Shown here: piece after piece, positions 4,884-57,330 of the stretch
How positions within the stretch are numbered: position 1 is the first letter of the stretch
How the letters are laid out: each line of letters opens with the position of its first letter
Source: Escherichia phage APCEc01
Sequence record: NC_029091.1
Reading direction: 5' to 3' (one strand)
Length of the DNA: 64,000 nt
Program-made: the position numbers and the translations under genes
Notes under the pieces: model-generated
The model's database searches: none
What the model was told of the DNA's origin: nothing
The model's input: only the letters and a program-made list of their open reading frames with translations

Positions 4884-5170
4884 TTCTTTACGCTAAAGTA
4901 AAATCTGTCGAGAACGGATATGAAAGCGATCAACGTGCAGCTAAAGCACTAGTCGATGACTATGGTATTTTGACTAATTTTGAAGTTGAAAAGGTTTATA
5001 TCGACCGTTCATCTTCGCAAGTTAAATTACTCTGTGAAGATGATAAATTTAACACAGTTAACTTTGATTTCTTTATTGAAACAGAAAAAGGCCCTCTTGA
5101 ATATGATATTTTCAAGAATCCTTTGAAATTACGTTGCATTGAATATAATTACATTAATATGGTACGGTGA
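4880..5170 (+). CDS. hypothetical protein
   Basis: 96 aa; ATGA overlap with upstream gene. Confidence 0.5.
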   Translation: MILYAKVKSVENGYESDQRAAKALVDDYGILTNFEVEKVYIDRSSSQVKLLCEDDKFNTVNFDFFIETEKGPLEYDIFKNPLKLRCIEYNYINMVR

Positions 5171-5174
5171 GTAA

Positions 5175-5690
5175 ATGAATATTTGTTTAGGCAGTACAAT
5201 TCCTAAGGGTTACGTAATTGATGTCACTACTTGGGAAAATGACGGCGACAACTATAAAACTAAAACGTTGTTTGGTGTAGAAGAGCATGAGCTCCAACAG
5301 TTTAAATATCTCTTGAAGAAATTTAAGAGTCGTCATTCCAGCACTAAAGCTGAACGTTACTGTGGTAATACACCATTCAGTGATTGCTCGCTTTTAATCT
5401 ATGAATACTTGGTTGAAGGACTGTTCTCAGACCAGCTTTATCCAGAATTCATTAAAAAGGTCTTTGGTATTGAAGTCGACCTTGGTAATAAATCTGAAGA
5501 AGACGAATCGCGTGTATTTGACCTGTTCCATGAGAATGGATATTTAGTATCAGAAGGTCTCATTGATATTCTTGGCCATGCTTCTGAATATTATGATTAT
5601 GATTTCTTGCGTGTAGTTGAATGTGTTGAATTTGCTTATATTGAAGAAGAAATCGTTTTGCCGACTGTTAAAATGATTGATTTGCTTTAA
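5175..5690 (+). CDS. hypothetical protein
   Basis: 171 aa acidic protein; GGTGAG RBS. Confidence 0.5.
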   Translation: MNICLGSTIPKGYVIDVTTWENDGDNYKTKTLFGVEEHELQQFKYLLKKFKSRHSSTKAERYCGNTPFSDCSLLIYEYLVEGLFSDQLYPEFIKKVFGIEVDLGNKSEEDESRVFDLFHENGYLVSEGLIDILGHASEYYDYDFLRVVECVEFAYIEEEIVLPTVKMIDLL

Positions 5691-5769
5691 GAATTATGTG
5701 TTATTATTAATTCATACCCTCTATTACCAAAGGTGCTCTAAAGTGCCTTTCATAATAGAAAGTTATTTA

Positions 5770-5843
5770 GGCCCTGTAGCTCAATGGTTAGCAGCAGTCC
5801 CCTCATAAGGGAAAGGTTACCAGTTCGAATCTGGTCTGGGTCA
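5770..5843 (+). tRNA. tRNA with anticodon CAU (Met or Ile2/AUA-reading type)
   Basis: Hand fold: acceptor GGCCCTG/CTGGGTC (one U-U mismatch), T arm ACCAG-TTCGAAT-CTGGT, anticodon loop CTCATAA; no encoded CCA. Confidence 0.6.
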
Positions 5844-5849
5844 TATATT

Positions 5850-5926
<77 letters not shown>

Positions 5927-5944
5927 ACTTTAAGTGAGGAAAAT

Positions 5945-6289
5945 ATGAAAGGTAATATTTATCTGGTAGTTCATGATTTAACGTTTTATTTTAATGAACA
6001 GGATACAGTTATTTCCGACCGGTTGATTAATTCGTTATATCAACACGCTGATTACGTTTATTTCCAAAATGAATTTGGCCATTGGAAGTTTCTTAAAAAC
6101 CGTTCCGGGTTAACTAGTTTTGAATACTTTGACCGTAAAGACCTTTTAAACGAAATTCCATTACAACATCGGTTCCAGAAACGCGAATCACTATACTATT
6201 GTCGTCATATACCAAATGCTGAATGTGTTTATGAAGCGATTAATCTATGGCGTCGGCGTCGAGAGCAAATTGATGATATGCCAAAATAA
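5945..6289 (+). CDS. hypothetical protein
   Basis: ATG 5945 after GAGG, just downstream of tRNA-Arg; 114 aa. Track start 5897 lies inside the tRNA. Confidence 0.45.
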   Translation: MKGNIYLVVHDLTFYFNEQDTVISDRLINSLYQHADYVYFQNEFGHWKFLKNRSGLTSFEYFDRKDLLNEIPLQHRFQKRESLYYCRHIPNAECVYEAINLWRRRREQIDDMPK

Positions 6290-6457
6290 GAAGCCGGGTC
6301 GCTACCGGCAAGTCGTCGGACTGATGTTCCCTGAGTAAGGACTGGTCTTAATAAATCTTTACGATTTGTTAATATCCCCTTACATCACAGCAGAAACGGC
6401 GCACAGAATTATCGATTCGAGGAAATATCTTTGTCGTAAGCCGAGTAGCGTTTTTGA

Positions 6458-6549
6458 CGGAACGTTCGGATATGGTCGAGATATGGCCTTTTAAAAATAT
6501 TGAGTAGCGTCAACTGCTTAATAACCGGGTTCGAATCCCGGCGTTTCGT
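6458..6549 (+). ncRNA. tRNA-like element (possible degenerate tRNA or small stable RNA)
   Basis: Perfect T arm CCGGG-TTCGAAT-CCCGG followed by CGTTTCG that can pair with CGGAACG at 6458; D and anticodon arms do not fold canonically; lies in a 370-bp ORF-free stretch ending in a terminator. Confidence 0.25.
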
Positions 6550-6600
6550 ACAAACACTTGCCTTAGCAGGTGGAACCCCGACAAGGTTGCCGCAAGGCTT

Positions 6601-6630
6601 AGCCCCTTCCGAAAGGTCGGGGCTTTTTGG
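6601..6630 (+). terminator. rho-independent terminator
   Basis: AGCCCC-TTCCGAAAGGTC-GGGGCT hairpin with GAAA tetraloop core, then TTTTTGG. Confidence 0.7.
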
Positions 6631-6673
6631 CATAATAATAAATAGATAAGTTAATTAACTTAGGAAAAGCAAC

Positions 6674-7138
6674 ATGAAATCATACGCTGAATTTTTGACT
6701 GAACAATCTAGTTCAGATGTAAAAGCCGCTGCGATTGCAGCAATTCAAGCAGGTAAATATTCTTACAAAGACGCCTCTGATGAAGAACGTTTCCGTTTTA
6801 TTAGAGATTTTAAAGCCGAAGGTTTTACTAATGCTAATACTGTTAGCCGAGTTTTTAAAAGCCTAGCTGCATCAGGTGAATTGTTCCAGAAAGCTACAGG
6901 TAAAGCACCTGCGCCAAAAACAGACCCTAAAGCAGCTCAAGAAAAAAATATCGCCAAAGGAATTATTTCTAAGTATGAAGCAATTCTTAAAGAGCTTTTA
7001 GTAATCAAAACAGAAGGCCAGAAACTGGCACGAGCACATAGCTTCAAAGATAATCCTCACGCTCATAGCCTTGAGTATGTTGAAGATATCCAAAAACTTA
7101 TTAAAGACCGTATCTGGTCTGCTAAACAAATTAAATAA
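6674..7138 (+). CDS. internal-protein-like protein with capsid targeting sequence
   Basis: 154 aa; N-terminus MKSYAEFLTEQ. Confidence 0.5.
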   Translation: MKSYAEFLTEQSSSDVKAAAIAAIQAGKYSYKDASDEERFRFIRDFKAEGFTNANTVSRVFKSLAASGELFQKATGKAPAPKTDPKAAQEKNIAKGIISKYEAILKELLVIKTEGQKLARAHSFKDNPHAHSLEYVEDIQKLIKDRIWSAKQIK

Positions 7139-47927: not shown

Positions 47928-50639
47928 ATGAAAGAATTTTACTTAACGGTTGAACAGATTGGTGATTCAATTTTTGAACGTTACATCGATTCTAATGGCC
48001 GTGAACGTACTCGTGAAGTAGAATATAAACCATCACTGTTTGCTCATTGTCCAGAAAGTCAGGCTACGAAATATTTCGATATCTACGGTAAGCCGTGTAC
48101 TCGTAAGTTGTTCGCTAATATGCGTGATGCCTCCCAATGGATTAAACGCATGGAAGATATCGGACTTGAAGCACTTGGCATGGACGATTTCAAATTGGCG
48201 TATTTGTCTGACACTTATAACTATGAAATCAAATACGACCATACAAAAATTCGTGTGGCTAACTTCGACATCGAAGTAACATCTCCGGACGGGTTCCCTG
48301 AGCCGTCACAAGCAAAACATCCGATTGATGCTATCACCCATTATGACTCAATTGACGACAGGTTCTACGTATTTGATCTATTGAATTCTCCATATGGTAA
48401 TGTAGAAGAATGGTCTATTGAAATCGCTGCTAAGCTTCAAGAACAAGGCGGTGATGAAGTTCCATCTGAAATTATCGATAAAATCATTTATATGCCGTTC
48501 GATAACGAAAAAGAATTGTTGATGGAATATCTCAACTTCTGGCAACAGAAAACTCCTGTCATTTTGACTGGATGGAACGTTGAGTCATTTGATATTCCAT
48601 ATGTGTATAACCGAATCAAGAATATTTTTGGCGAATCTACTGCGAAACGTTTATCGCCACATCGTAAAACTCGTGTTAAAGTTATCGAAAACATGTATGG
48701 TTCTCGTGAAATCATTACATTGTTCGGTATCTCTGTTCTTGATTACATTGGCCTTTACAAAAAATTCTCTTTTACCAATCAACCGTCGTATTCTCTGGAT
48801 TACATTTCAGAATTTGAATTGAACGTTGGTAAACTGAAATATGACGGCCCTATTTCTAAGCTTCGTGAAAGCAATCACCAACGATATATTTCTTATAACA
48901 TTATCGACGTGTATCGTGTATTGCAAATTGATGCTAAGCGTCAGTTCATCAACTTGAGCTTGGACATGGGTTATTATGCTAAGATACAGATTCAATCTGT
49001 GTTTAGCCCAATTAAAACATGGGATGCTATTATTTTTAATAGCCTTAAAGAGCAGAACAAGGTGATTCCACAAGGTCGTTCTCACCCGGTTCAACCTTAT
49101 CCCGGCGCTTTTGTTAAGGAACCTATTCCAAATCGATACAAATATGTAATGAGTTTCGACCTTACATCTCTGTATCCAAGTATTATTCGCCAAGTGAATA
49201 TTAGCCCGGAAACAATAGCAGGAACGTTTAAAGTAGCTCCATTGCATGATTATATTAACGCAATCGCTGAACGTCCTTCAGATGTGTACAGTTGCTCTCC
49301 TAACGGCATGATGTATTATAAAGACCGTGATGGTGTAGTTCCAACTGAAATCACTAAGGTCTTTAATCAACGTAAAGAACATAAAGGTTACATGCTTGCA
49401 GCTCAACGTAATGGTGAAATAATTAAAGAGGCATTGCATAATCCTAATCTTTCTGTTGACGAACCATTAGATGTTGATTATCGTTTCGACTTCAGTGATG
49501 AGATTAAAGAAAAGATTAAAAAGTTGTCTGCTAAATCTCTTAATGAAATGTTGTTTAGAGCTCAACGTACTGAAGTTGCAGGTATGACCGCACAAATTAA
49601 CCGTAAATTGCTTATCAACTCACTTTATGGTGCACTTGGCAACGTTTGGTTCCGTTATTATGATTTGCGTAATGCTACTGCAATCACAACATTCGGGCAA
49701 ATGGCTTTACAGTGGATTGAACGTAAAGTTAATGAATATCTGAATGAAGTTTGTGGTACAGAAGGTGAAGCTTTCGTTCTATATGGTGATACAGACTCTA
49801 TTTACGTATCTGCTGATAAAATTATCGATAAGGTTGGTGAATCTAAATTCCGTGATACCAACCATTGGGTAGACTTCTTAGATAAGTTTGCACGTGAACG
49901 TATGGAACCTGCTATTGATAGAGGTTTCCGTGAAATGTGTGAATACATGAACAATAAACAACACTTAATGTTCATGGACCGAGAAGCTATCGCTGGTCCT
50001 CCGCTCGGTTCTAAAGGTATTGGTGGATTCTGGACTGGTAAGAAACGTTATGCATTAAACGTGTGGGATATGGAAGGAACCAGATACGCTGAGCCTAAAC
50101 TCAAAATCATGGGTCTAGAGACTCAGAAATCTTCGACCCCTAAAGCAGTACAGAAAGCTCTTAAAGAATGTATTCGTCGTATGCTTCAAGAAGGTGAAGA
50201 ATCATTACAAGAATATTTTAAAGAGTTTGAAAAAGAATTCCGTCAATTGAATTATATTAGCATCGCGTCGGTATCTTCTGCGAATAACATTGCTAAATAC
50301 GACGTAGGTGGATTCCCGGGTCCTAAATGCCCGTTCCATATTCGTGGAATTCTGACATATAACCGAGCTATCAAAGGTAATATTGATGCACCACAAGTTG
50401 TAGAAGGTGAAAAAGTATATGTTCTGCCTTTACGTGAAGGAAACCCATTCGGTGATAAATGTATCGCATGGCCTTCTGGTACTGAAATCACAGATTTAAT
50501 TAAAGACGATGTACTTCATTGGATGGACTACACTGTTCTCCTTGAGAAGACATTTATTAAACCACTTGAAGGATTCACATCAGCAGCTAAACTCGATTAC
50601 GAGAAGAAAGCATCTCTGTTCGATATGTTTGATTTTTGA
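47928..50639 (+). CDS. 43: DNA polymerase gp43 (family B, with 3'-5' exonuclease)
   Basis: 903 aa; MKEFYLTVEQIGDSIFERYIDSNGRERTREVEYKPSLFAHCPES...; exo motifs FDIEV and NVESFDIPYVY, pol motifs SLYPSII and YGDTDS; matches my memory of the RB69 polymerase. Confidence 0.97.
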   Translation: MKEFYLTVEQIGDSIFERYIDSNGRERTREVEYKPSLFAHCPESQATKYFDIYGKPCTRKLFANMRDASQWIKRMEDIGLEALGMDDFKLAYLSDTYNYEIKYDHTKIRVANFDIEVTSPDGFPEPSQAKHPIDAITHYDSIDDRFYVFDLLNSPYGNVEEWSIEIAAKLQEQGGDEVPSEIIDKIIYMPFDNEKELLMEYLNFWQQKTPVILTGWNVESFDIPYVYNRIKNIFGESTAKRLSPHRKTRVKVIENMYGSREIITLFGISVLDYIGLYKKFSFTNQPSYSLDYISEFELNVGKLKYDGPISKLRESNHQRYISYNIIDVYRVLQIDAKRQFINLSLDMGYYAKIQIQSVFSPIKTWDAIIFNSLKEQNKVIPQGRSHPVQPYPGAFVKEPIPNRYKYVMSFDLTSLYPSIIRQVNISPETIAGTFKVAPLHDYINAIAERPSDVYSCSPNGMMYYKDRDGVVPTEITKVFNQRKEHKGYMLAAQRNGEIIKEALHNPNLSVDEPLDVDYRFDFSDEIKEKIKKLSAKSLNEMLFRAQRTEVAGMTAQINRKLLINSLYGALGNVWFRYYDLRNATAITTFGQMALQWIERKVNEYLNEVCGTEGEAFVLYGDTDSIYVSADKIIDKVGESKFRDTNHWVDFLDKFARERMEPAIDRGFREMCEYMNNKQHLMFMDREAIAGPPLGSKGIGGFWTGKKRYALNVWDMEGTRYAEPKLKIMGLETQKSSTPKAVQKALKECIRRMLQEGEESLQEYFKEFEKEFRQLNYISIASVSSANNIAKYDVGGFPGPKCPFHIRGILTYNRAIKGNIDAPQVVEGEKVYVLPLREGNPFGDKCIAWPSGTEITDLIKDDVLHWMDYTVLLEKTFIKPLEGFTSAAKLDYEKKASLFDMFDF

Positions 50640-50679
50640 TATAATGCCAAGGACGGCCAACTAATTAAATGAGAGAAAT

Positions 50680-51315
50680 ATGAAAACTACTCCTATTACT
50701 ATCGCTATTGACGCAATCGTAAAACAAGCTTCATCTCTTGCCACTATGGCTAAAGTAATTAGTCAAAACCCTGCTCGTTATAATGCTATTCTAGAAACTC
50801 TTCGACGCCCTGGACTTAGTAATTATGAAAGCCGGGTAATTATTACAGGTGTTGGTAAGAATGCTAATATCGCAACTAAAGCTTCCGAGACTTTTGCTTC
50901 ACTAGGTATTCCTAGCATGTATTTGAACACCGGGCATTATTCTCATGGTGACGCAGGATTTATTGCGCCTAATGACGTGTTGATTCATATTAGTCGTTCT
51001 GGTAAAACTGAAGAAATGATAGGTGTTGCTAAACATCTTCGTATGATTCGTCCTCAGGTTAAACAGATTCTGTTACATTGTAACCCAGACATTCCACAAG
51101 AATACGAAGCTCTTTTTGATTATACGTTCTGTACCGGTATCGCGGTAGAAGTTGACGAGAACTCTTTAGCTCCGACTATGTCCACTACATTGTTGTTAGC
51201 GCTTATCGATACGTTTGCTATCAACCTTTCGTCTGAACGTGGATTTACCTCTAATGATTTCCTTAAGTTCCATCCAGGCGGTGCACTAGGTGCCATGTTA
51301 CGAGGCGAACAATGA
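50680..51315 (+). CDS. SIS-domain sugar-phosphate isomerase (KdsD/GutQ-like arabinose-5-phosphate isomerase candidate)
   Basis: 211 aa; SIS motifs ITGVGKNANIATKASETFASLGIP and IHISRSGKTEE; C-terminal FHPGGALGAML as in API enzymes; no CBS domains. Confidence 0.65.
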   Translation: MKTTPITIAIDAIVKQASSLATMAKVISQNPARYNAILETLRRPGLSNYESRVIITGVGKNANIATKASETFASLGIPSMYLNTGHYSHGDAGFIAPNDVLIHISRSGKTEEMIGVAKHLRMIRPQVKQILLHCNPDIPQEYEALFDYTFCTGIAVEVDENSLAPTMSTTLLLALIDTFAINLSSERGFTSNDFLKFHPGGALGAMLRGEQ

Positions 51316-51452
51316 AAGCAATAACAATAGGACTTTTACTATTGATGCTTGTCATGACTATCTACTGGAGCTTAACGGCTCCGGTAATGATTCCAACACT
51401 TGTAATTGGATGGATTATGATTGGACTACAAGCAAAGTATGAATGCTTTAAC
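51312..51452 (+). CDS. small hydrophobic membrane peptide (46 aa; possible Imm-like remnant)
   Basis: ATG 51312 overlaps upstream stop; MKAITIGLLLLMLVMTIYWSLTAPVMIPTLVIGWIMIGLQAKYECFN; below track size threshold. Confidence 0.4.
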
Positions 51453-51496
51453 TAGAATAGTGTACAATACTCCTACTTACCAATGAGGACTTCAAC

Positions 51497-53182
51497 ATGA
51501 AAAAAGCTGTTATTCTTGGTGCTGGACTGGCAACTCGTTTGTATCCAATAACGCATCATATTCCTAAGGTGCTTGTTAATTATAAACAAGACACTATTCT
51601 GAGCAATTTGTATACAATTTATTCTGACCTTGGCGCAGATGAAATTATTGTAGTAGTTCATTCAAAATTTGCTGAAACTGTTCGAGCTTATTGTGAGCAA
51701 GAAGGGTTCAATGTGACTATTCGTACAGTTGATGAAGCGTATGGTTCTGCTTATGCTCTTGCTAAATTACACAAAGATTTAGACGGCCATAATGTAATTG
51801 TTAACTGGTGTGATATTATTCCTGATTTTGGTTCATGGTCTTGGAATGTTAACGCAATCTATGTTAAGGGTGACGAATGTCGATATAATTTCGACGGTGA
51901 AAATATCACTAACGTAGGTTCAACAGGTGGTAATGTTGTAGGAATTTATCAGTTCAAAGACTGGGAATTCTATATGGGTTCTACCGATGAGGAAATTCAT
52001 GAATACTGCAAAGGACGTGATTTCGTAGAATTCCTTTACGGCAGCGCATTCAATAAATCAGAGCTTATGAATATAATTGATTTAGGTGATATGCCTAAAC
52101 TTGAAAAGGCTCATGAAGTTCGTGAACTTAATCGTAGTTTTAATGCAGTTGAAATTGGTGAAGAAACTGTAACTAAATTCGCATTAACCGAACAGGGTCG
52201 AGCTCTTCAGAAAGATGAGATTTCGTGGTATTTGAAAGTGAAATCAGATTCAGTTCCTCAGTTAGTTTCTGTTAATGAAAATAACTTTGAAATGGAACGC
52301 ATTAAAGGTAAGCCAGCATTTGAATATATTAAATCCAAATCAAGTCTTGCTCGTCCACAAATTGTTGATGCAATTTTAGATGCACTGAAATTCAGCACAG
52401 ACACTTATTTTGTAAGTCCTGAAACTGTTCGTCGTGATTTCACTAAAGAATTCTATACGAAAGTTATTGATCGTTGTGAAAGCATTCAACCGTTGATTGA
52501 TTCATTTGGTAAAATCACACATGTGAACTACACTAAGATTGGACGTCTGAAGCCAATGCTGAAACAAGCTTTAGAACACCTTATTCGGTATCATAACCGT
52601 TCTCAGGGACAGTACTCTGTTATTCACGGTGACCCGAACTTCAGTAATACTATGATTACTGATAACGGCGAAGTCAAGTTTATCGACCCTCGTGGATATT
52701 TTGGCGAAACCAAGATTTACGGGCCAAAATTGTATGATGAAGCTAAAGTGCTTTATGCTGTTTCAGGTTATGATGAATTCAATGCTAATCCGACCTGGGG
52801 GCAGTTTACTATTGATGAAACAACTTGTAATGTGACTATTAACATCAATCCATTAGTTTACAAATATGGAAAGATGAGTTCGTTTAACGAGTATCATCAT
52901 TTGGCAGTGGCAATTATCTGGATTGCATTAGGTGGTTATTTCAAGAATAATCCACTTAAAGCGGTAGCCGCATATTATAAAGGTATGGAACTTCTGACTA
53001 AGCAATTACGTAACATGGGCCGTGTACTTCAGGACGGCTCTATTAGTTATGACGTAGCAGAACCTGTAACGGCTACTCTGATTACAAAAAATCCTGGTAA
53101 ATGGGTACTAACTGATAAAGAAACTGGTGTTTCCTATCGTCCAATCGGTGGCGATATCACTCATCAATGGGAACGAATCTAA
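51497..53182 (+). CDS. bifunctional sugar-1-phosphate nucleotidyltransferase / anomeric sugar kinase (APH-ChoK fold)
   Basis: 561 aa; N-terminal AVILGAGLATRLYPITHHIPKVLV pyrophosphorylase signature; C-terminal IHGDPNFSNTMITDNGEVKFIDPRGYFG matches the HxDxxxxN catalytic loop and Dxx metal motif of APH/choline-kinase-like kinases. Confidence 0.7.
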   Translation: MKKAVILGAGLATRLYPITHHIPKVLVNYKQDTILSNLYTIYSDLGADEIIVVVHSKFAETVRAYCEQEGFNVTIRTVDEAYGSAYALAKLHKDLDGHNVIVNWCDIIPDFGSWSWNVNAIYVKGDECRYNFDGENITNVGSTGGNVVGIYQFKDWEFYMGSTDEEIHEYCKGRDFVEFLYGSAFNKSELMNIIDLGDMPKLEKAHEVRELNRSFNAVEIGEETVTKFALTEQGRALQKDEISWYLKVKSDSVPQLVSVNENNFEMERIKGKPAFEYIKSKSSLARPQIVDAILDALKFSTDTYFVSPETVRRDFTKEFYTKVIDRCESIQPLIDSFGKITHVNYTKIGRLKPMLKQALEHLIRYHNRSQGQYSVIHGDPNFSNTMITDNGEVKFIDPRGYFGETKIYGPKLYDEAKVLYAVSGYDEFNANPTWGQFTIDETTCNVTININPLVYKYGKMSSFNEYHHLAVAIIWIALGGYFKNNPLKAVAAYYKGMELLTKQLRNMGRVLQDGSISYDVAEPVTATLITKNPGKWVLTDKETGVSYRPIGGDITHQWERI

Positions 53183-53568
53183 TGCACCGTGTAGAAAACA
53201 TGCTTAATCTTTGTTTTGATGTCGATGATTGTATAACAGAGTGGAATAACAATCGTGATTACGTGAACTTCAAACCTGACGTCGAAATGGTGTCTGCCAT
53301 TAATGCCCTGTATGATGCAGGGCATACCATAACGCTTTACACTGCTCGCGGTATGAAGTCAGTAGGTCCTGGTCGTATAGCAATTGACATTCTCCCAAGT
53401 CTTATTCAGAACTTGGCAAACATTGGCTTGAAGTACCATAATTTGCTAACACATAAACCAGTATATGATTGGATTATCGACGACAAAGCTATGCGTCCTG
53501 ACGAATTCAAAGCTCTTATGAATAAAGGCGAATTCGAAACATTTAAATCATATAAACCGAATCTATAA
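53182..53568 (+). CDS. HAD-superfamily phosphatase
   Basis: ATG 53182 overlapping upstream stop (TAATG); 128 aa; motif I DVDDCIT near N-terminus, TARG and DDK motifs downstream. Confidence 0.6.
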   Translation: MHRVENMLNLCFDVDDCITEWNNNRDYVNFKPDVEMVSAINALYDAGHTITLYTARGMKSVGPGRIAIDILPSLIQNLANIGLKYHNLLTHKPVYDWIIDDKAMRPDEFKALMNKGEFETFKSYKPNL

Positions 53569-53628
53569 TAATTTAAGTAAGACCTGCAAAAAAAAACCAT
53601 CGCATCAATTAACGCGAGATGCAAAAAA

Positions 53629-54789
53629 ATGAATACTTTTAAAATCGGAACGAATTTTGATTTAGCTCTTCTTGATAAAATCGTAGAGCTCAATAAAACT
53701 TATCCTAATAGCTTGATAAATGAAGTATACGGCTCTACAAGAGAAATGGCTTTTGTAGCAGCCAGACCTGATTTTAGGCTTCCTGACGTTGACAAAAAGA
53801 TGTTAGAAGATTACGTTAAACGTTGTAACGAATTAGGTATTTGCTTTAACTATACACTCAACACGATAAATCCTGGTTCAAAAAGAGAACTAGTTGAGTG
53901 GAAGAAGAAAGCTATTCAGGATTATGTTCAGTATCTTTGGTCAATAGGCGTATGGCGTATTACTATCGCTAACCCTGTTGTTATGGAAATTGTTCGTGAA
54001 GTCAATAAAGACATTGAGATTGAAGTTTCAACAATTCTACATGTCGATGCTGTAACTCAAATCAAATACTTGCATGACCAATATAATATCAAAAAGGTCT
54101 GCTGTGGAATTCATAAGAACCGTTCAGTTTCTTTCCTGAAGCGTGCAGCAGAGTTTTGCAATAAGAACAATATAATATTTGAAGTTCTTGTAAATGAGTT
54201 CTGTTCTAATGCTGGTAAAGGGTATACAACACATTGTAGCTATCGTGACTCTTGCTATATTTTCCATAGTACTGATGTTACAGCTGATGATGCTAAATCC
54301 TTAAACGGATATCCTATGCAGCACTGTATTAAAGCTCGTGATACAGACCCATTTAACTGGTTGAGAACTCGTTTTGTTCGTCCTCAAGATTTGAAACTTT
54401 ATAATGATATTGGTATCACTCAATTCAAAGTTTCAGGACGTACAGGTAGCACAGACTACATTTTGAAAGTTCTTGAAGCATACGCTTCTGAAAAGTTTGA
54501 AGGTAATTTGTTAGAACTGTGGAAGCCTTTAGAGACTATTTTCACTCTTGAAAACGAAACTGAGTTTTCACATACAGTAAATATTGAAACCTCTTTGTTA
54601 GATGGCTTTTTAGAAAAAAGGTGGTTCAGACATCCAGATTTCGATTGTGCTAATGAAATCTGCGGGACGACGTGTACATATTGTGAAAGATATTATAAAC
54701 GTCAATTATCTAAAAACGGGTTAGCAGAAAACTCTATATCTATTATTGATATAACTAACTCTGATGACGCTTTGAGGTACCCGGAATGA
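53629..54789 (+). CDS. Cys-cluster enzyme of unknown function (possible U32-like/TIM-barrel or transferase)
   Basis: 386 aa; internal EFCSNAGKGYTTHCSYRDSCY and C-terminal CANEICGTTCTYCERYY Cys clusters; family not confidently recognised. Confidence 0.5.
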   Translation: MNTFKIGTNFDLALLDKIVELNKTYPNSLINEVYGSTREMAFVAARPDFRLPDVDKKMLEDYVKRCNELGICFNYTLNTINPGSKRELVEWKKKAIQDYVQYLWSIGVWRITIANPVVMEIVREVNKDIEIEVSTILHVDAVTQIKYLHDQYNIKKVCCGIHKNRSVSFLKRAAEFCNKNNIIFEVLVNEFCSNAGKGYTTHCSYRDSCYIFHSTDVTADDAKSLNGYPMQHCIKARDTDPFNWLRTRFVRPQDLKLYNDIGITQFKVSGRTGSTDYILKVLEAYASEKFEGNLLELWKPLETIFTLENETEFSHTVNIETSLLDGFLEKRWFRHPDFDCANEICGTTCTYCERYYKRQLSKNGLAENSISIIDITNSDDALRYPE

Positions 54790-55025
54790 TTTCTAGAAAA
54801 ACTTTTAACCACCAACTTAATGAAGAGATTTTGACTATGAAACTGAACACTAATGAACAAATTCTTAAAAAGGCCCATCAGGGCCTTTTTGAAACTAAAG
54901 CGGCTAAAGTGATTAAAGAACCTGTTCAATTAGAATACTACGCTGATGCATTTCTTCATAGTGTTCTTGGAAGTATCGATGCCGAAGCTTTACGTTATAT
55001 CAATATTGCCAAGAAATTCAAATAA
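54786..55025 (+). CDS. hypothetical protein
   Basis: 79 aa; ATGA overlap with upstream gene. Confidence 0.45.
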   Translation: MISRKTFNHQLNEEILTMKLNTNEQILKKAHQGLFETKAAKVIKEPVQLEYYADAFLHSVLGSIDAEALRYINIAKKFK

Positions 55026-55047
55026 GCTTTACGAATTGAGTATATAA
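55023..55047 (+). promoter_or_regulatory. candidate MotA-dependent middle promoter for gene 42
   Basis: AAGCTTTA MotA-box-like sequence 11 nt upstream of TATAAT at 55042. Confidence 0.4.
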
Positions 55048-55066
55048 TAATTGTATTGAGGTAAAC

Positions 55067-55783
55067 ATGGGAAAACATAACACAATGAAATATATCAAAG
55101 CCGCAGATTTTCAAACCGCATTTAAAGCAGTCAATCGTGAAATTTTAGAAAACCCGGAATTCGTAACTGATTCTCGTATTGGACGTTGTAATGAAATTGG
55201 GTCTATGACAGTAGTTGTTGACACTCCATCATCATTCAAAATGACCGACCCACGTATTAACCGCATCTCTTATGAATATGCCGAAGACTTCTGGAAGTTT
55301 ATGATTTCTGGTGGTACCAACGCAGAAGAAGCGTTTAAGGCATATCCTAATGTCGCTAAATTTATTTCTAAACCAAAATCAGATGTTTTGCCGGCGAACT
55401 TCAACACTTTCTATGGTCCTCGCATTGCGGCTCAATTACCAGCTCTTCTAAAAGAACTTAAAGAGAAGCCTAACTCCCGAAGAGTTGTGTTCCAAATTCT
55501 AGAAAGTTCTGATCAGGCTTTGCTTGATTCGGACGAAACGCTTGAATATCCATGTACTGACTCAGTGACTTATTATATTCGTGATGGTAAGCTTTATACC
55601 CACTGTCATATGCGTTCTCAGAACTGTGCTGTTGTTATGCAGTTGGATTTTTATCTCCAAGGAAAATTACTTCATTATATCGCTAACGAATGTGGTGTAG
55701 AAGTTGGTGATTATACTCATACCATGGTAAGTGCCCATGTGTTTGAACGTGATTTTGATTATGTTAAAGGATTCCTTGACTAA
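55067..55783 (+). CDS. 42: dCMP hydroxymethylase gp42 (thymidylate-synthase fold)
   Basis: 238 aa; TS-family landmarks SRRVVFQ, nucleophile PCTD, MRSQNCAVVMQLDF, SAHVF; only TS-like gene here; position between 43 and uvsX as in T4. Confidence 0.7.
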   Translation: MGKHNTMKYIKAADFQTAFKAVNREILENPEFVTDSRIGRCNEIGSMTVVVDTPSSFKMTDPRINRISYEYAEDFWKFMISGGTNAEEAFKAYPNVAKFISKPKSDVLPANFNTFYGPRIAAQLPALLKELKEKPNSRRVVFQILESSDQALLDSDETLEYPCTDSVTYYIRDGKLYTHCHMRSQNCAVVMQLDFYLQGKLLHYIANECGVEVGDYTHTMVSAHVFERDFDYVKGFLD

Positions 55784-56682
55784 TGGCTATTTTCCGCGTA
55801 CCTATCTTGAGTATGCGGTCTTATGAAACTGGACAGTATGCTATCCTTAAGGATGGCAACTTCCAACTTCATTTGCACCGTGCTAATCCGGGTGATGTGA
55901 TTACATATCCACGTAATGCATCTGATATTAAAGAATGCGAACGTCTTTTTCCAGAATTTAAGTTTGTTCCATTATGGTATAAAGATAACGCGTATAACAC
56001 TCGTAAATATTTCTGGTCTGAAAATGAATTTGTGGTTGATTCATTAATTGCTTATTATGACTGTGATTTTCTAATCACAGATATCACTGGATATGACGGC
56101 GCTTTTGATGTGGAATTCAATTTCAATATCACTGCAGACCCTAATAAACCACGTTTTTATATTGACGAATTCTTAAAAACCGATATGTTGTCGGTTAATC
56201 GTTCACTTCAAACTACTGTGTTGAATGAACGTCAAAAAGAAGTGCTGGTTAACGCTGGTGCAGATGGTAATAAGATTATCGTAACGCAGAAAGTTATACG
56301 TCCTTCCATCATGCAGCGTCTTGTAGGTGATTTGGCTCCTATTCATCTAGATGGTATTTTTCATCCATTTCGAATTAGTGACCCATGCTATCGTTTTGAA
56401 CAAGTTGTTGAATGCGCAATTCAATTAGGTCAACCGCTTTATATAACCGATCCAAATAATAGCTTCGACAGAAATAAGTATCCTGAAGAAGCGTTGATTC
56501 GAATTTTTAAACCAACTAAAACTGAGTACTATCAAATTCTTAAAGGACGTCCGAAAATTCAATATTTCGAAAATCCTGAAGAAGTATTCCATCCAGGTCT
56601 TGGTGAGTTCATCTACTTTAATGCTTTAATTTCTTCGCCGTATAATATACCTAAATATGAAGATGTCGTAATCGAGGAATAA
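55783..56682 (+). CDS. hypothetical protein occupying the beta-glucosyltransferase position (candidate modification enzyme)
   Basis: 299 aa; no resemblance to remembered T4 beta-gt; ATGG overlap with gene 42 stop. Confidence 0.5.
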   Translation: MAIFRVPILSMRSYETGQYAILKDGNFQLHLHRANPGDVITYPRNASDIKECERLFPEFKFVPLWYKDNAYNTRKYFWSENEFVVDSLIAYYDCDFLITDITGYDGAFDVEFNFNITADPNKPRFYIDEFLKTDMLSVNRSLQTTVLNERQKEVLVNAGADGNKIIVTQKVIRPSIMQRLVGDLAPIHLDGIFHPFRISDPCYRFEQVVECAIQLGQPLYITDPNNSFDRNKYPEEALIRIFKPTKTEYYQILKGRPKIQYFENPEEVFHPGLGEFIYFNALISSPYNIPKYEDVVIEE

Positions 56683-56683
56683 A

Positions 56684-57232
56684 ATGGCTAAAATTATTTT
56701 AGTAGATGGCCCAGATAATGCTGGTAAAACAACTTTCATTAATGTCATAATGGAAATTAGTGAAAGATATGTAAAGATTGATTTCCCTAAACGAACAGTT
56801 GATGGGCGTTTCGATGTTAAGTCTCGAAATGAAGTTGGCTGTTTCGAAACGATGTTGAATTATTTAGACCCTACTAAGATTTATCTGTTAGACCGTGGAT
56901 ATATTAGTAACTGGGTTTATGGACGTATTCGACAAGATGCGGACTCGATTCTTGACGTTTATGAACAGGACTATGTTCGTCTTTGCCAAAACCATGATGT
57001 GTTCACAATTATTTTAACACGTAACGAAATGACTGAAAGTTTTGAAGACGACCTTATTACTTTGTCTTCATTCGGTTTTAATACAGTCATTTCACATTTT
57101 GAAGAGTTTGCAATTCATAACAAAATCCAAACGTATCAATTACTTAATCATGATGGTGCTAACAAAGTTATAGGATTTAATGCAAGCGAACGTAATTATT
57201 TGATTACAGAAATTATCAAATGGGCTCGTTAA
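56684..57232 (+). CDS. P-loop nucleotide/nucleoside kinase-like protein
   Basis: 182 aa; Walker A ILVDGPDNAGKTT, DRGY segment; resembles dNMP/thymidylate-kinase-like P-loop kinases. Confidence 0.5.
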   Translation: MAKIILVDGPDNAGKTTFINVIMEISERYVKIDFPKRTVDGRFDVKSRNEVGCFETMLNYLDPTKIYLLDRGYISNWVYGRIRQDADSILDVYEQDYVRLCQNHDVFTIILTRNEMTESFEDDLITLSSFGFNTVISHFEEFAIHNKIQTYQLLNHDGANKVIGFNASERNYLITEIIKWAR

Positions 57233-57251
57233 GAGCCATTTAAAGTTTTAA

Positions 57252-57277
57252 ATGCTGTATAACCCTTAGTATATAAT
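57252..57277 (+). promoter_or_regulatory. candidate middle promoter for uvsX
   Basis: AAATGCTGTA (MotA-box-like) 11 nt upstream of TATAAT at 57272. Confidence 0.35.
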
Positions 57278-57330
57278 CATCTTATCTTTTAAACATGAGT
57301 AAAATATAATGATGCCTATGGAAAAATACA

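Follow-up and report, generated by a model that had tools for sequence, protein, structure and literature searches.

The ADP-heptose route uses a GmhA isomerase, an HldE kinase/nucleotidyltransferase and a GmhB phosphatase, and it passes through a bisphosphate. The logic of the GmhB pathway, in which an SIS isomerase, an anomeric kinase, an HAD phosphatase acting on the distal phosphate and a nucleotidyltransferase work together, is the same as in the phage pathway considered here. The phage phosphatase, AfhF of Escherichia phage HY126, is reportedly the subject of a primary study by He et al. (2026) in Nat Chem Biol. As that work is summarised in PMC13326640, AfhE phosphorylates Araf5P to Araf1,5P and is also a UDP-arabinose pyrophosphorylase, and AfhF, a phosphatase dependent on Mg2+, turns arabinofuranose-1,5-bisphosphate into arabinofuranose-1-phosphate. 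The summarising paper (Lee et al., NAR 2026, PMC13326640) describes the DNA modification as mono- to tri-arabinosylated 5-hydroxycytosine, not arabinosyl-hmC. It has 5-hydroxy-dCMP made by a ThyA homologue, reports this synthase activity as demonstrated for RB69 gp48, a thymidylate-synthase homologue, and gives as the counterparts of AfhE and AfhF the products gp52:53 and gp51 in RB69 and gp82 and gp81 in DLP3.

We compared with these systems a locus in Escherichia phage APCEc01 (NC_029091.1), of which a stretch of 64,000 nucleotides, here called the window, was analysed. The window is RB69-like T4-type phage DNA. In its ORF list the module of interest is flanked by T4-type replication genes (clamp loader, RegA, gp43 polymerase, UvsX and gp41), and the 6.7 kb from 50600 to 57300 had its best match in the phage collection, at 99.3% identity, in Shigella phage JK42 and showed 98–99% identity to about 150 RB69-like (Mosigvirus) phages. 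Between the polymerase and UvsX genes, the first half of the module consists, in order, of an SIS isomerase, a 561-aa nucleotidyltransferase (NTase)/kinase fusion, the afhF ORF and a U32-family protein, and the second half of a 79-aa ORF, a thymidylate-synthase homologue, a 299-aa protein (PHROG 3891) and a thymidylate-kinase-like protein (Table 1). An earlier, sequence-only reading of this DNA had spoken of a phosphatase between an isomerase and a kinase; if this was meant physically, it does not describe the locus, where the order is isomerase, NTase/kinase, phosphatase.

Table 1. Genes of the arabinosylation module and features of afhF in the window, with the evidence for each
Feature	Coordinates	Strand	Evidence
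SIS-domain D-arabinose-5-phosphate isomerase, KdsD/GutQ-like, without CBS domains	50680..51315	+	Pfam SIS E=4e-10; NCBIfam KpsF/GutQ E=5e-32, KdsD E=2e-30; PDB 3etn E=7e-25
AfhE-like bifunctional enzyme, 561 aa	51497..53182	+	PHROG 4098 E=6e-295
TAATG stop/start overlap, AfhE-like gene/afhF	53180..53184	+	Read from sequence: TAA 53180-53182, ATG 53182-53184, one shared base
AfhF, capless (C0) HAD-type phosphatase, 128 aa	53182..53568	+	128/128 identity to PDB 9iqw; PHROG 1238 E=1e-42; TIGR01689 E=3.8e-13
HAD motif I, DVDDC (Asp13 nucleophile, Asp15 general acid/base)	53218..53232	+	D13/D15 invariant in 18 homologues; aligned with DLDGT of 1xpj
HAD motif II, Thr54 in LYTARG	53341..53343	+	T54, R56, G57 invariant (18 homologues)
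HAD motif III, Lys92 in THKP	53455..53457	+	K92, P93 invariant (18 homologues)
HAD motif IV, Asp100-Asp101 in IIDDKA (Mg2+ ligands)	53479..53484	+	D100/D101 invariant (18 homologues)
U32-family protein, RB69 gp50 homologue	53629..54789	+	Pfam Peptidase_U32 E=7e-11; PHROG 5757
Thymidylate-synthase homologue, 5-hydroxy-dCMP synthase	55067..55783	+	Pfam Thymidylat_synt; near-identical to PDB 9iqc/9ir2/9iqu, E=8e-161
RB69 gp46:47 homologue, putative first DNA arabinosyltransferase, 299 aa	55783..56682	+	PHROG 3891 E=3e-156; role from PMC13326640 Table 1
Thymidylate-kinase-like nucleotide kinase, RB69 gp45 homologue	56684..57232	+	PHROG 761 E=3e-44; PMC13326640 Table 1

A search of the PDB with the afhF product returned 9iqw, released on 2025-07-16 under the title 'phage HY126 encoded D-arabinose 1,5-diphosphate phosphatase AfhF'. 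The two sequences are identical at 128/128 positions (9iqw residues 7–134), the start codon is shared and there is no difference at the protein level. The afhF product of the window is an already known, structurally solved enzyme, and it has both the sequence of the HY126 protein and its expected position in an arabinosylation cluster, beside a bifunctional AfhE-like gene. The orthologues RB69 gp51 (ORF051c) and Acinetobacter phage DLP3 gp81 lie in the same cluster between DNA polymerase and UvsX. The afhE/afhF junction of RB69, as given by a reverse primer (PMC6024577), is identical to that of the window, whereas DLP3 gp81 differs in having about 59% identity, a shorter N-terminus and an ATGA-type overlap.

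The sequence-only reading had proposed an HAD-family phosphatase from a DVDD motif I lying 13 residues from the N-terminus. The motif is as described, with Asp13 at nt 53218, and the family call is borne out by PHROG 1238, TIGR01689, 1xpj, the 128/128 match to 9iqw and the invariance of the motifs. We aligned 18 homologues, down to 35% identity, and found the key residues of all four motifs unchanged; the fifth position of motif I, Cys in the AfhF studied here, is Thr in most of them. The alignment and an AF2 model together display the hallmarks of the HAD superfamily considered here, namely motif I, the residues of motifs II–IV and a Rossmannoid core fold. Given invariant motifs I–IV and the family and PDB matches, the HAD assignment is secure and does not reflect a chance motif.

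Pfam-A gave no match for the afhF ORF, even at E=0.1, and the family placement was therefore taken from PHROGs, NCBIfam and the PDB. The matched PHROG 1238 carries the label 'phosphoheptose isomerase' (GmhA), which is a misannotation: Pfam detects no SIS domain and the fold is that of an HAD protein. TIGR01689 (capsule biosynthesis phosphatase, HAD class IIIC) was matched over nearly the whole model, with a score of 49.5 bits against a cut-off of 162 that makes AfhF a relative of this family, not a member. Membership in GmhB/HAD-IIIA was likewise rejected, as the TIGR01662 score of 14.7 bits lies below the cut-off (44.6) and GmhB models gave no match. The AF2 model of AfhF (18 homologues, pLDDT 80.6) superimposed on 9iqw with a TM of 0.87 and on 1xpj, a structural-genomics protein of Vibrio cholerae and the next relative in the PDB sequence search (E=4.9e-10), with a TM of 0.71; lower-ranked, weak matches were to GmhB, KdsC, HisB-N and the T4 PNKP phosphatase domain.

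Outside phages, the closest relatives in sequence and structure are proteins of HAD class IIIC (EcbF/BcbF of TIGR01689 and V. cholerae 1xpj, the latter at 30% identity and TM 0.71–0.74), which are of the same size as AfhF and likewise without a cap. GmhB (D-glycero-D-manno-heptose 1,7-bisphosphate 7-phosphatase) shares the HAD fold, with 3l8h and 4pnh at ranks 6–7, but is a larger protein of subfamily HAD-IIIA with 14–17% identity and TM 0.46–0.48. The partner enzymes differ as well, the kinase and NTase being APH-like and GlmU/RmlA-like in the phage and PfkB-like and cytidylyltransferase-like in the GmhB pathway. KdsC (YrbI), the Kdo-8-phosphate phosphatase, is also a capless HAD enzyme and takes the terminal phosphate off a sugar that is made from arabinose-5-P; it differs from AfhF in that the structural match is weak (TM about 0.4) and no NCBIfam KdsC model was matched.

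The N-terminus of the afhF protein reads MHRVENMLNLCFDVDDCIT, and its 128 codons run to a TAA at 53566–53568 that is followed by a second TAA. Two in-frame ATG codons are alternatives to the one at 53182, 15 nt earlier at 53167 and downstream at 53200 (Met7). The crystallised protein (9iqw) starts at the codon corresponding to 53182, and this ATG is the only start common to relatives with long (MHRVEN...) and short N-termini; its Shine-Dalgarno match (GGGA, dG -4.2) is modest and ranks in the top 9% of the background positions. The ORF list opens the frame at 53167, and the annotation of phage Bas46 uses the same codon. Judged from the aligned sequences, a start at 53167 appears less likely because the GTG or ATG found there in relatives stems from conserved Gln-Trp codons of the upstream gene. 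The start at Met7 was rejected, as it has no Shine-Dalgarno sequence (dG +0.2) and PM2-like and Dhakavirus homologues lack Met7 while retaining the MHRVEN extension.

The overlap of this start with the upstream stop, noted in the sequence-only reading, is present as TAATG at 53180–53184 with one shared base, and the arrangement for co-expression with the kinase/NTase gene that was read from it agrees with the related loci, 12/15 of which keep a stop/start overlap (TAATG, ATGA or GTGA, or longer). The TAATG junction occurs in Mosigvirus, Dhakavirus, Yersinia phage TG1-like and other loci, an ATGA or GTGA overlap in two and a 17-nt overlap in one. The genes do not overlap in Pectobacterium phage PM2 (52-nt gap) or in one metagenomic contig (118-nt gap), nor in Escherichia phage NRG-P0074, where the junction is the exact insertion site of a gene for a GIY-YIG-like homing endonuclease and the N-terminus of the phosphatase is replaced. 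Stop/start overlaps were found at 4–5 of about 14 same-strand junctions between 46 and 59 kb, one of them an identical TAATG with a 1-base overlap at the start of the gene at 55783. Because such overlaps are common in this genome, we only infer translational coupling of afhE and afhF, from an overlap that is conserved but not unusual. A scan of 50.5–57.4 kb for promoters and terminators found no excess over shuffled sequence (promoters 22 versus 25.7 expected; terminators 4 versus 3.4), and we therefore drew no operon boundaries from it.

The neighbouring genes provide the remaining parts of the module. In the AfhE-like protein, the N-terminus is a sugar-1-P nucleotidyltransferase (Pfam NTP_transferase at residues 3–99) and the C-terminus an APH/choline-kinase-like kinase (weak matches to Pfam kinase families at residues 308–409); its function is assigned from the account in PMC13326640, and the reverse primer for RB69 ORF53_52c (PMC6024577) exactly matches the 3' end of its gene. 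The PDB codes matched by the ThyA homologue (9iqc/9ir2/9iqu) are adjacent to the code 9iqw, and in the PDB sequence search neither the AfhE-like protein nor the 299-aa glycosyltransferase had an identical or close entry, and the U32 protein had no sequence relative. The U32 gene adjoining afhF is a side lead, as are the bacterial relatives described below.

We conclude that AfhF is, with high probability, a capless Mg2+-dependent HAD phosphatase in a UDP-D-arabinofuranose pathway for 5-hydroxycytosine arabinosylation, with the following proposed steps. The SIS isomerase would convert ribulose-5-P of the host to arabinose-5-P, and the C-terminal kinase domain of AfhE would phosphorylate C1 to give arabinose-1,5-bisphosphate. 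AfhF would then strip the 5-phosphate via an aspartyl-phosphate intermediate on Asp13, a chemistry that we infer for this particular protein, and release arabinose-1-P. Onto this the N-terminal nucleotidyltransferase domain of AfhE would transfer UMP from UTP, and phage glycosyltransferases would move the arabinose of the resulting UDP-arabinose onto 5-hydroxycytosine in DNA, so that no free sugar would appear anywhere in the pathway. AfhE and AfhF would exchange an intermediate, and termination-reinitiation on a single mRNA probably yields both enzymes, since the afhF ATG overlaps the afhE stop. By analogy, the arabinose pathway appears to mirror the ADP-heptose route as its pentose counterpart, built with different kinase and NTase folds. 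The substrate of AfhF, the order of the steps and the Mg dependence are taken from the secondary summary (PMC13326640) and the title of the PDB entry; our own analysis contributes the ORF, the motifs, the fold, the identity to 9iqw and the conserved synteny and overlap.

The sequence-only reading had also given the enzyme a place in the pathway, and its pentose-phosphate substrate in arabinose activation stands. The conversion it proposed, of a sugar 5-phosphate to the free sugar before phosphorylation at C1, does not agree with the title of 9iqw or with PMC13326640, in whose account C1 is phosphorylated first. The corresponding alternative, in which the HAD enzyme would turn arabinose-5-P into free D-arabinose for the kinase domain to phosphorylate at C1, is in our view improbable. 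Two general considerations count against it: the host could catabolise free D-arabinose, and the precedent of GmhA, HldE and GmhB, the same three types of enzyme, uses a bisphosphate. The published account contains statements on either side. Table 1 of PMC13326640 putatively lists RB69 gp51/DLP3 gp81 in this role ('dephosphorylates Araf5p to Ara'), a sign that this older route had been entertained, whereas its text has AfhE as an arabinose-5-phosphate kinase and AfhF acting on Araf1,5P. The fold of the kinase domain is APH/choline-kinase-like, and the similarity to glucosamine kinase given in PMC13326640 is to a free-sugar enzyme, which would suit the alternative; the PDB title of the identical protein nevertheless names the 1,5-diphosphate as the substrate.

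Using tblastn, we found afhF in 382 phage records (Escherichia 175, Acinetobacter 57, Klebsiella 25, Synechococcus 20, and others). Loci were also drawn from public collections of phages and viral contigs; in each of the 14 whose homologue was at least 50% identical, afhF lay directly 3' of an NTase/kinase homologue and near a ThyA homologue, and the isomerase was present in 11 of these and the U32 gene in 9. This strict synteny with a sugar kinase/NTase gene across the 14/14 close loci counts against a second alternative, a nucleotidase or polynucleotide 3'-phosphatase acting on nucleotide pools or DNA ends and unrelated to sugar activation. Hints in its favour are a weak match to PHROG 415 'polynucleotide kinase' (E=0.005), weak Pfam HAD_PNKP matches in the bacterial fused relatives, the label 'putative polynucleotide kinase' borne by the homologue in Acinetobacter phage records and a Foldseek AFDB match to a putative 5'(3')-deoxyribonucleotidase reported in PMC13326640. 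Yet AfhF has no kinase domain, its likeness to PNKP is that of the general HAD fold only (TM 0.47–0.51) and it is identical to a characterised AfhF, and we regard the activation of arabinose as its role and a nucleotidase function as very improbable indeed.

Distant relatives of afhF, with 30–45% identity, were found in other sugar-activation contexts. In cyanophage S-SSM7 the relative lies beside a PfkB kinase, a cytidylyltransferase-like NTase and an NAD-dependent epimerase, a set resembling HldE/GmhB/HldD, and this module follows the same kinase/phosphatase/NTase logic. In Chitinophagaceae a KdsD-like SIS gene and a KdsA-like DAHP_synth_1 gene follow immediately downstream of the relative, and in genomes of Planctomycetota, Methylococcales and others a CTP_transf_3 (KdsB/NeuA-like) protein carries the relative as its C-terminal domain. 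The bacterial relatives are thus either in a KdsC-like position by KdsD-like and KdsA-like genes or in a KdsB-like fusion. Because the distant relatives occupy such varied contexts of sugar activation, the distribution suggests that the AfhF family generally takes the distal phosphate off in nucleotide-sugar pathways. A tentative extension, which we consider possible but would not favour, is that the bacterial HAD-IIIC proteins of the AfhF type are an unrecognised KdsC-type phosphatase of Kdo-like pathways, and that the phage isomerase and phosphatase were taken over from a Kdo operon, with a change of target from Kdo-8-P to arabinose-1,5-bisphosphate; Kdo-8-P is built from arabinose-5-P, and the two compounds are therefore chemically the same at the end that bears the phosphate. 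There is hardly any chance that AfhF itself is an auxiliary enzyme for the host surface, with substrates such as Kdo-8-P or heptose phosphates, as its capsule and heptose labels could imply: the nearest curated family is the capsule biosynthesis phosphatase TIGR01689, Kdo-type operons house the bacterial relatives and the cyanophage relative sits within a heptose-like module, but the TIGR01689 score is far under its cut-off, 'phosphoheptose isomerase' is a misnomer for a protein with no SIS domain, and the context of the phage cluster and the activity as published (PMC13326640) indicate arabinose.

As the AfhF step has already been solved structurally and biochemically, the locus adds no new biology, and the practical value of the comparison is the correction of annotation. 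Most public records label afhF 'phosphoheptose isomerase', 'capsule biosynthesis protein' or 'hypothetical protein', and its AfhE-like partner is labelled 'GlmU' or even 'dCMP deaminase'. For annotation, the point to be carried over is that the pathway would run via the bisphosphate, not via free arabinose. For the phages, AfhF would be one step in the supply of UDP-arabinose for cytosine hypermodification, in RB69-like and in many other T4-type phages, and the arabinose modification guards phage DNA against restriction enzymes and certain other defence systems.

The insertion of a homing endonuclease gene in Escherichia phage NRG-P0074 shows that the direct overlap of the nucleotidyltransferase/kinase gene afhE with the phosphatase gene afhF is dispensable. 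The inserted gene lies precisely at the afhE/afhF junction, its start being the ATG equivalent to window position 53167, and it takes the place of the first AfhF residues (MKPLHLCVDVDD). Its coordinates are listed with those of the other features in the table.

Features of the window and of the fetched loci carrying AfhF homologues
Feature	Source	Coordinates	Strand	Remarks
Sigma-70-like hexamer pair	window	53542-53569	+	TTTAAA, 16 nt, TATAAT; overlapping the final afhF codons
U32-family gene	window	53629-54789	+	Pfam Peptidase_U32, E=7e-11; directly 3' of afhF
Homing endonuclease gene	L002, Escherichia phage NRG-P0074	2265-3026		253 aa; N-terminus GIY-YIG-like
AfhF homologue module	L004, cyanophage (Synechococcus phage S-SSM7)	2941-7099		38% identity
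AfhF homologue with C-terminal extension	P0046, Shewanella phage Thanatos-1			196 aa
AfhF homologue with C-terminal extension	L015	3492-4100
HAD/SIS/DAHP_synth_1 apparent operon	L090, Chitinophaga MAG	4980-6704

Among viral relatives, the Dhakavirus-like loci L005, L010 and L011 retain AfhE, AfhF, the ThyA homologue and the kinase. We found no isomerase homologue within their fetched flanks; the gene may be located elsewhere, or arabinose-5-P may be supplied by the host KdsD/GutQ. In some AfhF homologues the C-terminus is extended by about 70–75 residues that have no counterpart in the window protein, and one of these homologues belongs to Thanatos-1; cytosine in Thanatos DNA bears a pentose (PMC12838424). 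The S-SSM7 homologue has as neighbours a PfkB sugar kinase and a cytidylyltransferase-like NTase, along with an NAD-dependent epimerase, a 2OG-Fe(II) oxygenase and a cupin; together they make up a module resembling the HldE/GmhB/HldD set. SSSM7_131, recorded as a "putative nucleotidyltransferase" in the same phage, scored as a cupin only. AfhF-like genes of about 40% identity were also present on two IMG/VR contigs named GVMAG and labelled as giant-virus metagenome-assembled genomes (L045 and L057).

Relatives in bacteria, at 30–42% identity, occur in an apparent operon in which the HAD gene accompanies SIS (KdsD-like) and DAHP_synth_1 (KdsA-like) genes, an arrangement seen in the Chitinophaga MAG and in further loci (L093–L102, L111, L113 and L114). 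This context suggests a KdsC-like role for them, as predicted Kdo-8-P phosphatases. Bacterial MAGs from several phyla encode a CTP_transf_3 (KdsB/NeuA-like) cytidylyltransferase with an AfhF-like HAD domain fused at its C-terminus (L087, L092, L096, L103, L109 and L116), and at locus L091 the HAD domain is fused with an NAD-dependent epimerase/dehydratase.

Wrong labels are widespread for the cluster genes in the matched public records. AfhF appears as "phosphoheptose isomerase", "capsule biosynthesis protein" or "putative polynucleotide kinase", AfhE as "bifunctional protein GlmU" or "dCMP deaminase", and the 5-hydroxy-dCMP synthase as "dCMP hydroxymethylase"; only the record of phage Bas46 labels afhF a "putative phosphatase".

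A sigma-70-like hexamer pair overlaps the 3' end of afhF, 60 nt 5' of the U32-family gene. This pair may be a chance occurrence, since our promoter scan found such sites in the region to be no more numerous than in shuffled sequence.

The U32 gene itself was found in 9 of the 14 loci with an AfhF homologue of at least 50% identity. Its product has a cysteine cluster at the C-terminus (CANEICGTTCTYC) and matched UbiU weakly in an NCBIfam profile search; a PDB sequence search gave no relative. The RB69 homologue, gp50, has been described just as a "sugar or heterocycle reductase" (PMC13326640). The U32 proteins RlhA, which makes ho5C2501 in rRNA (PMC5727448), TrhP, which makes ho5U in tRNA (PMC6599085), and UbiU/V (PMC10990095) are all O2-independent hydroxylases and, by analogy with these, the window protein could provide an anaerobic route to 5-hydroxycytosine.
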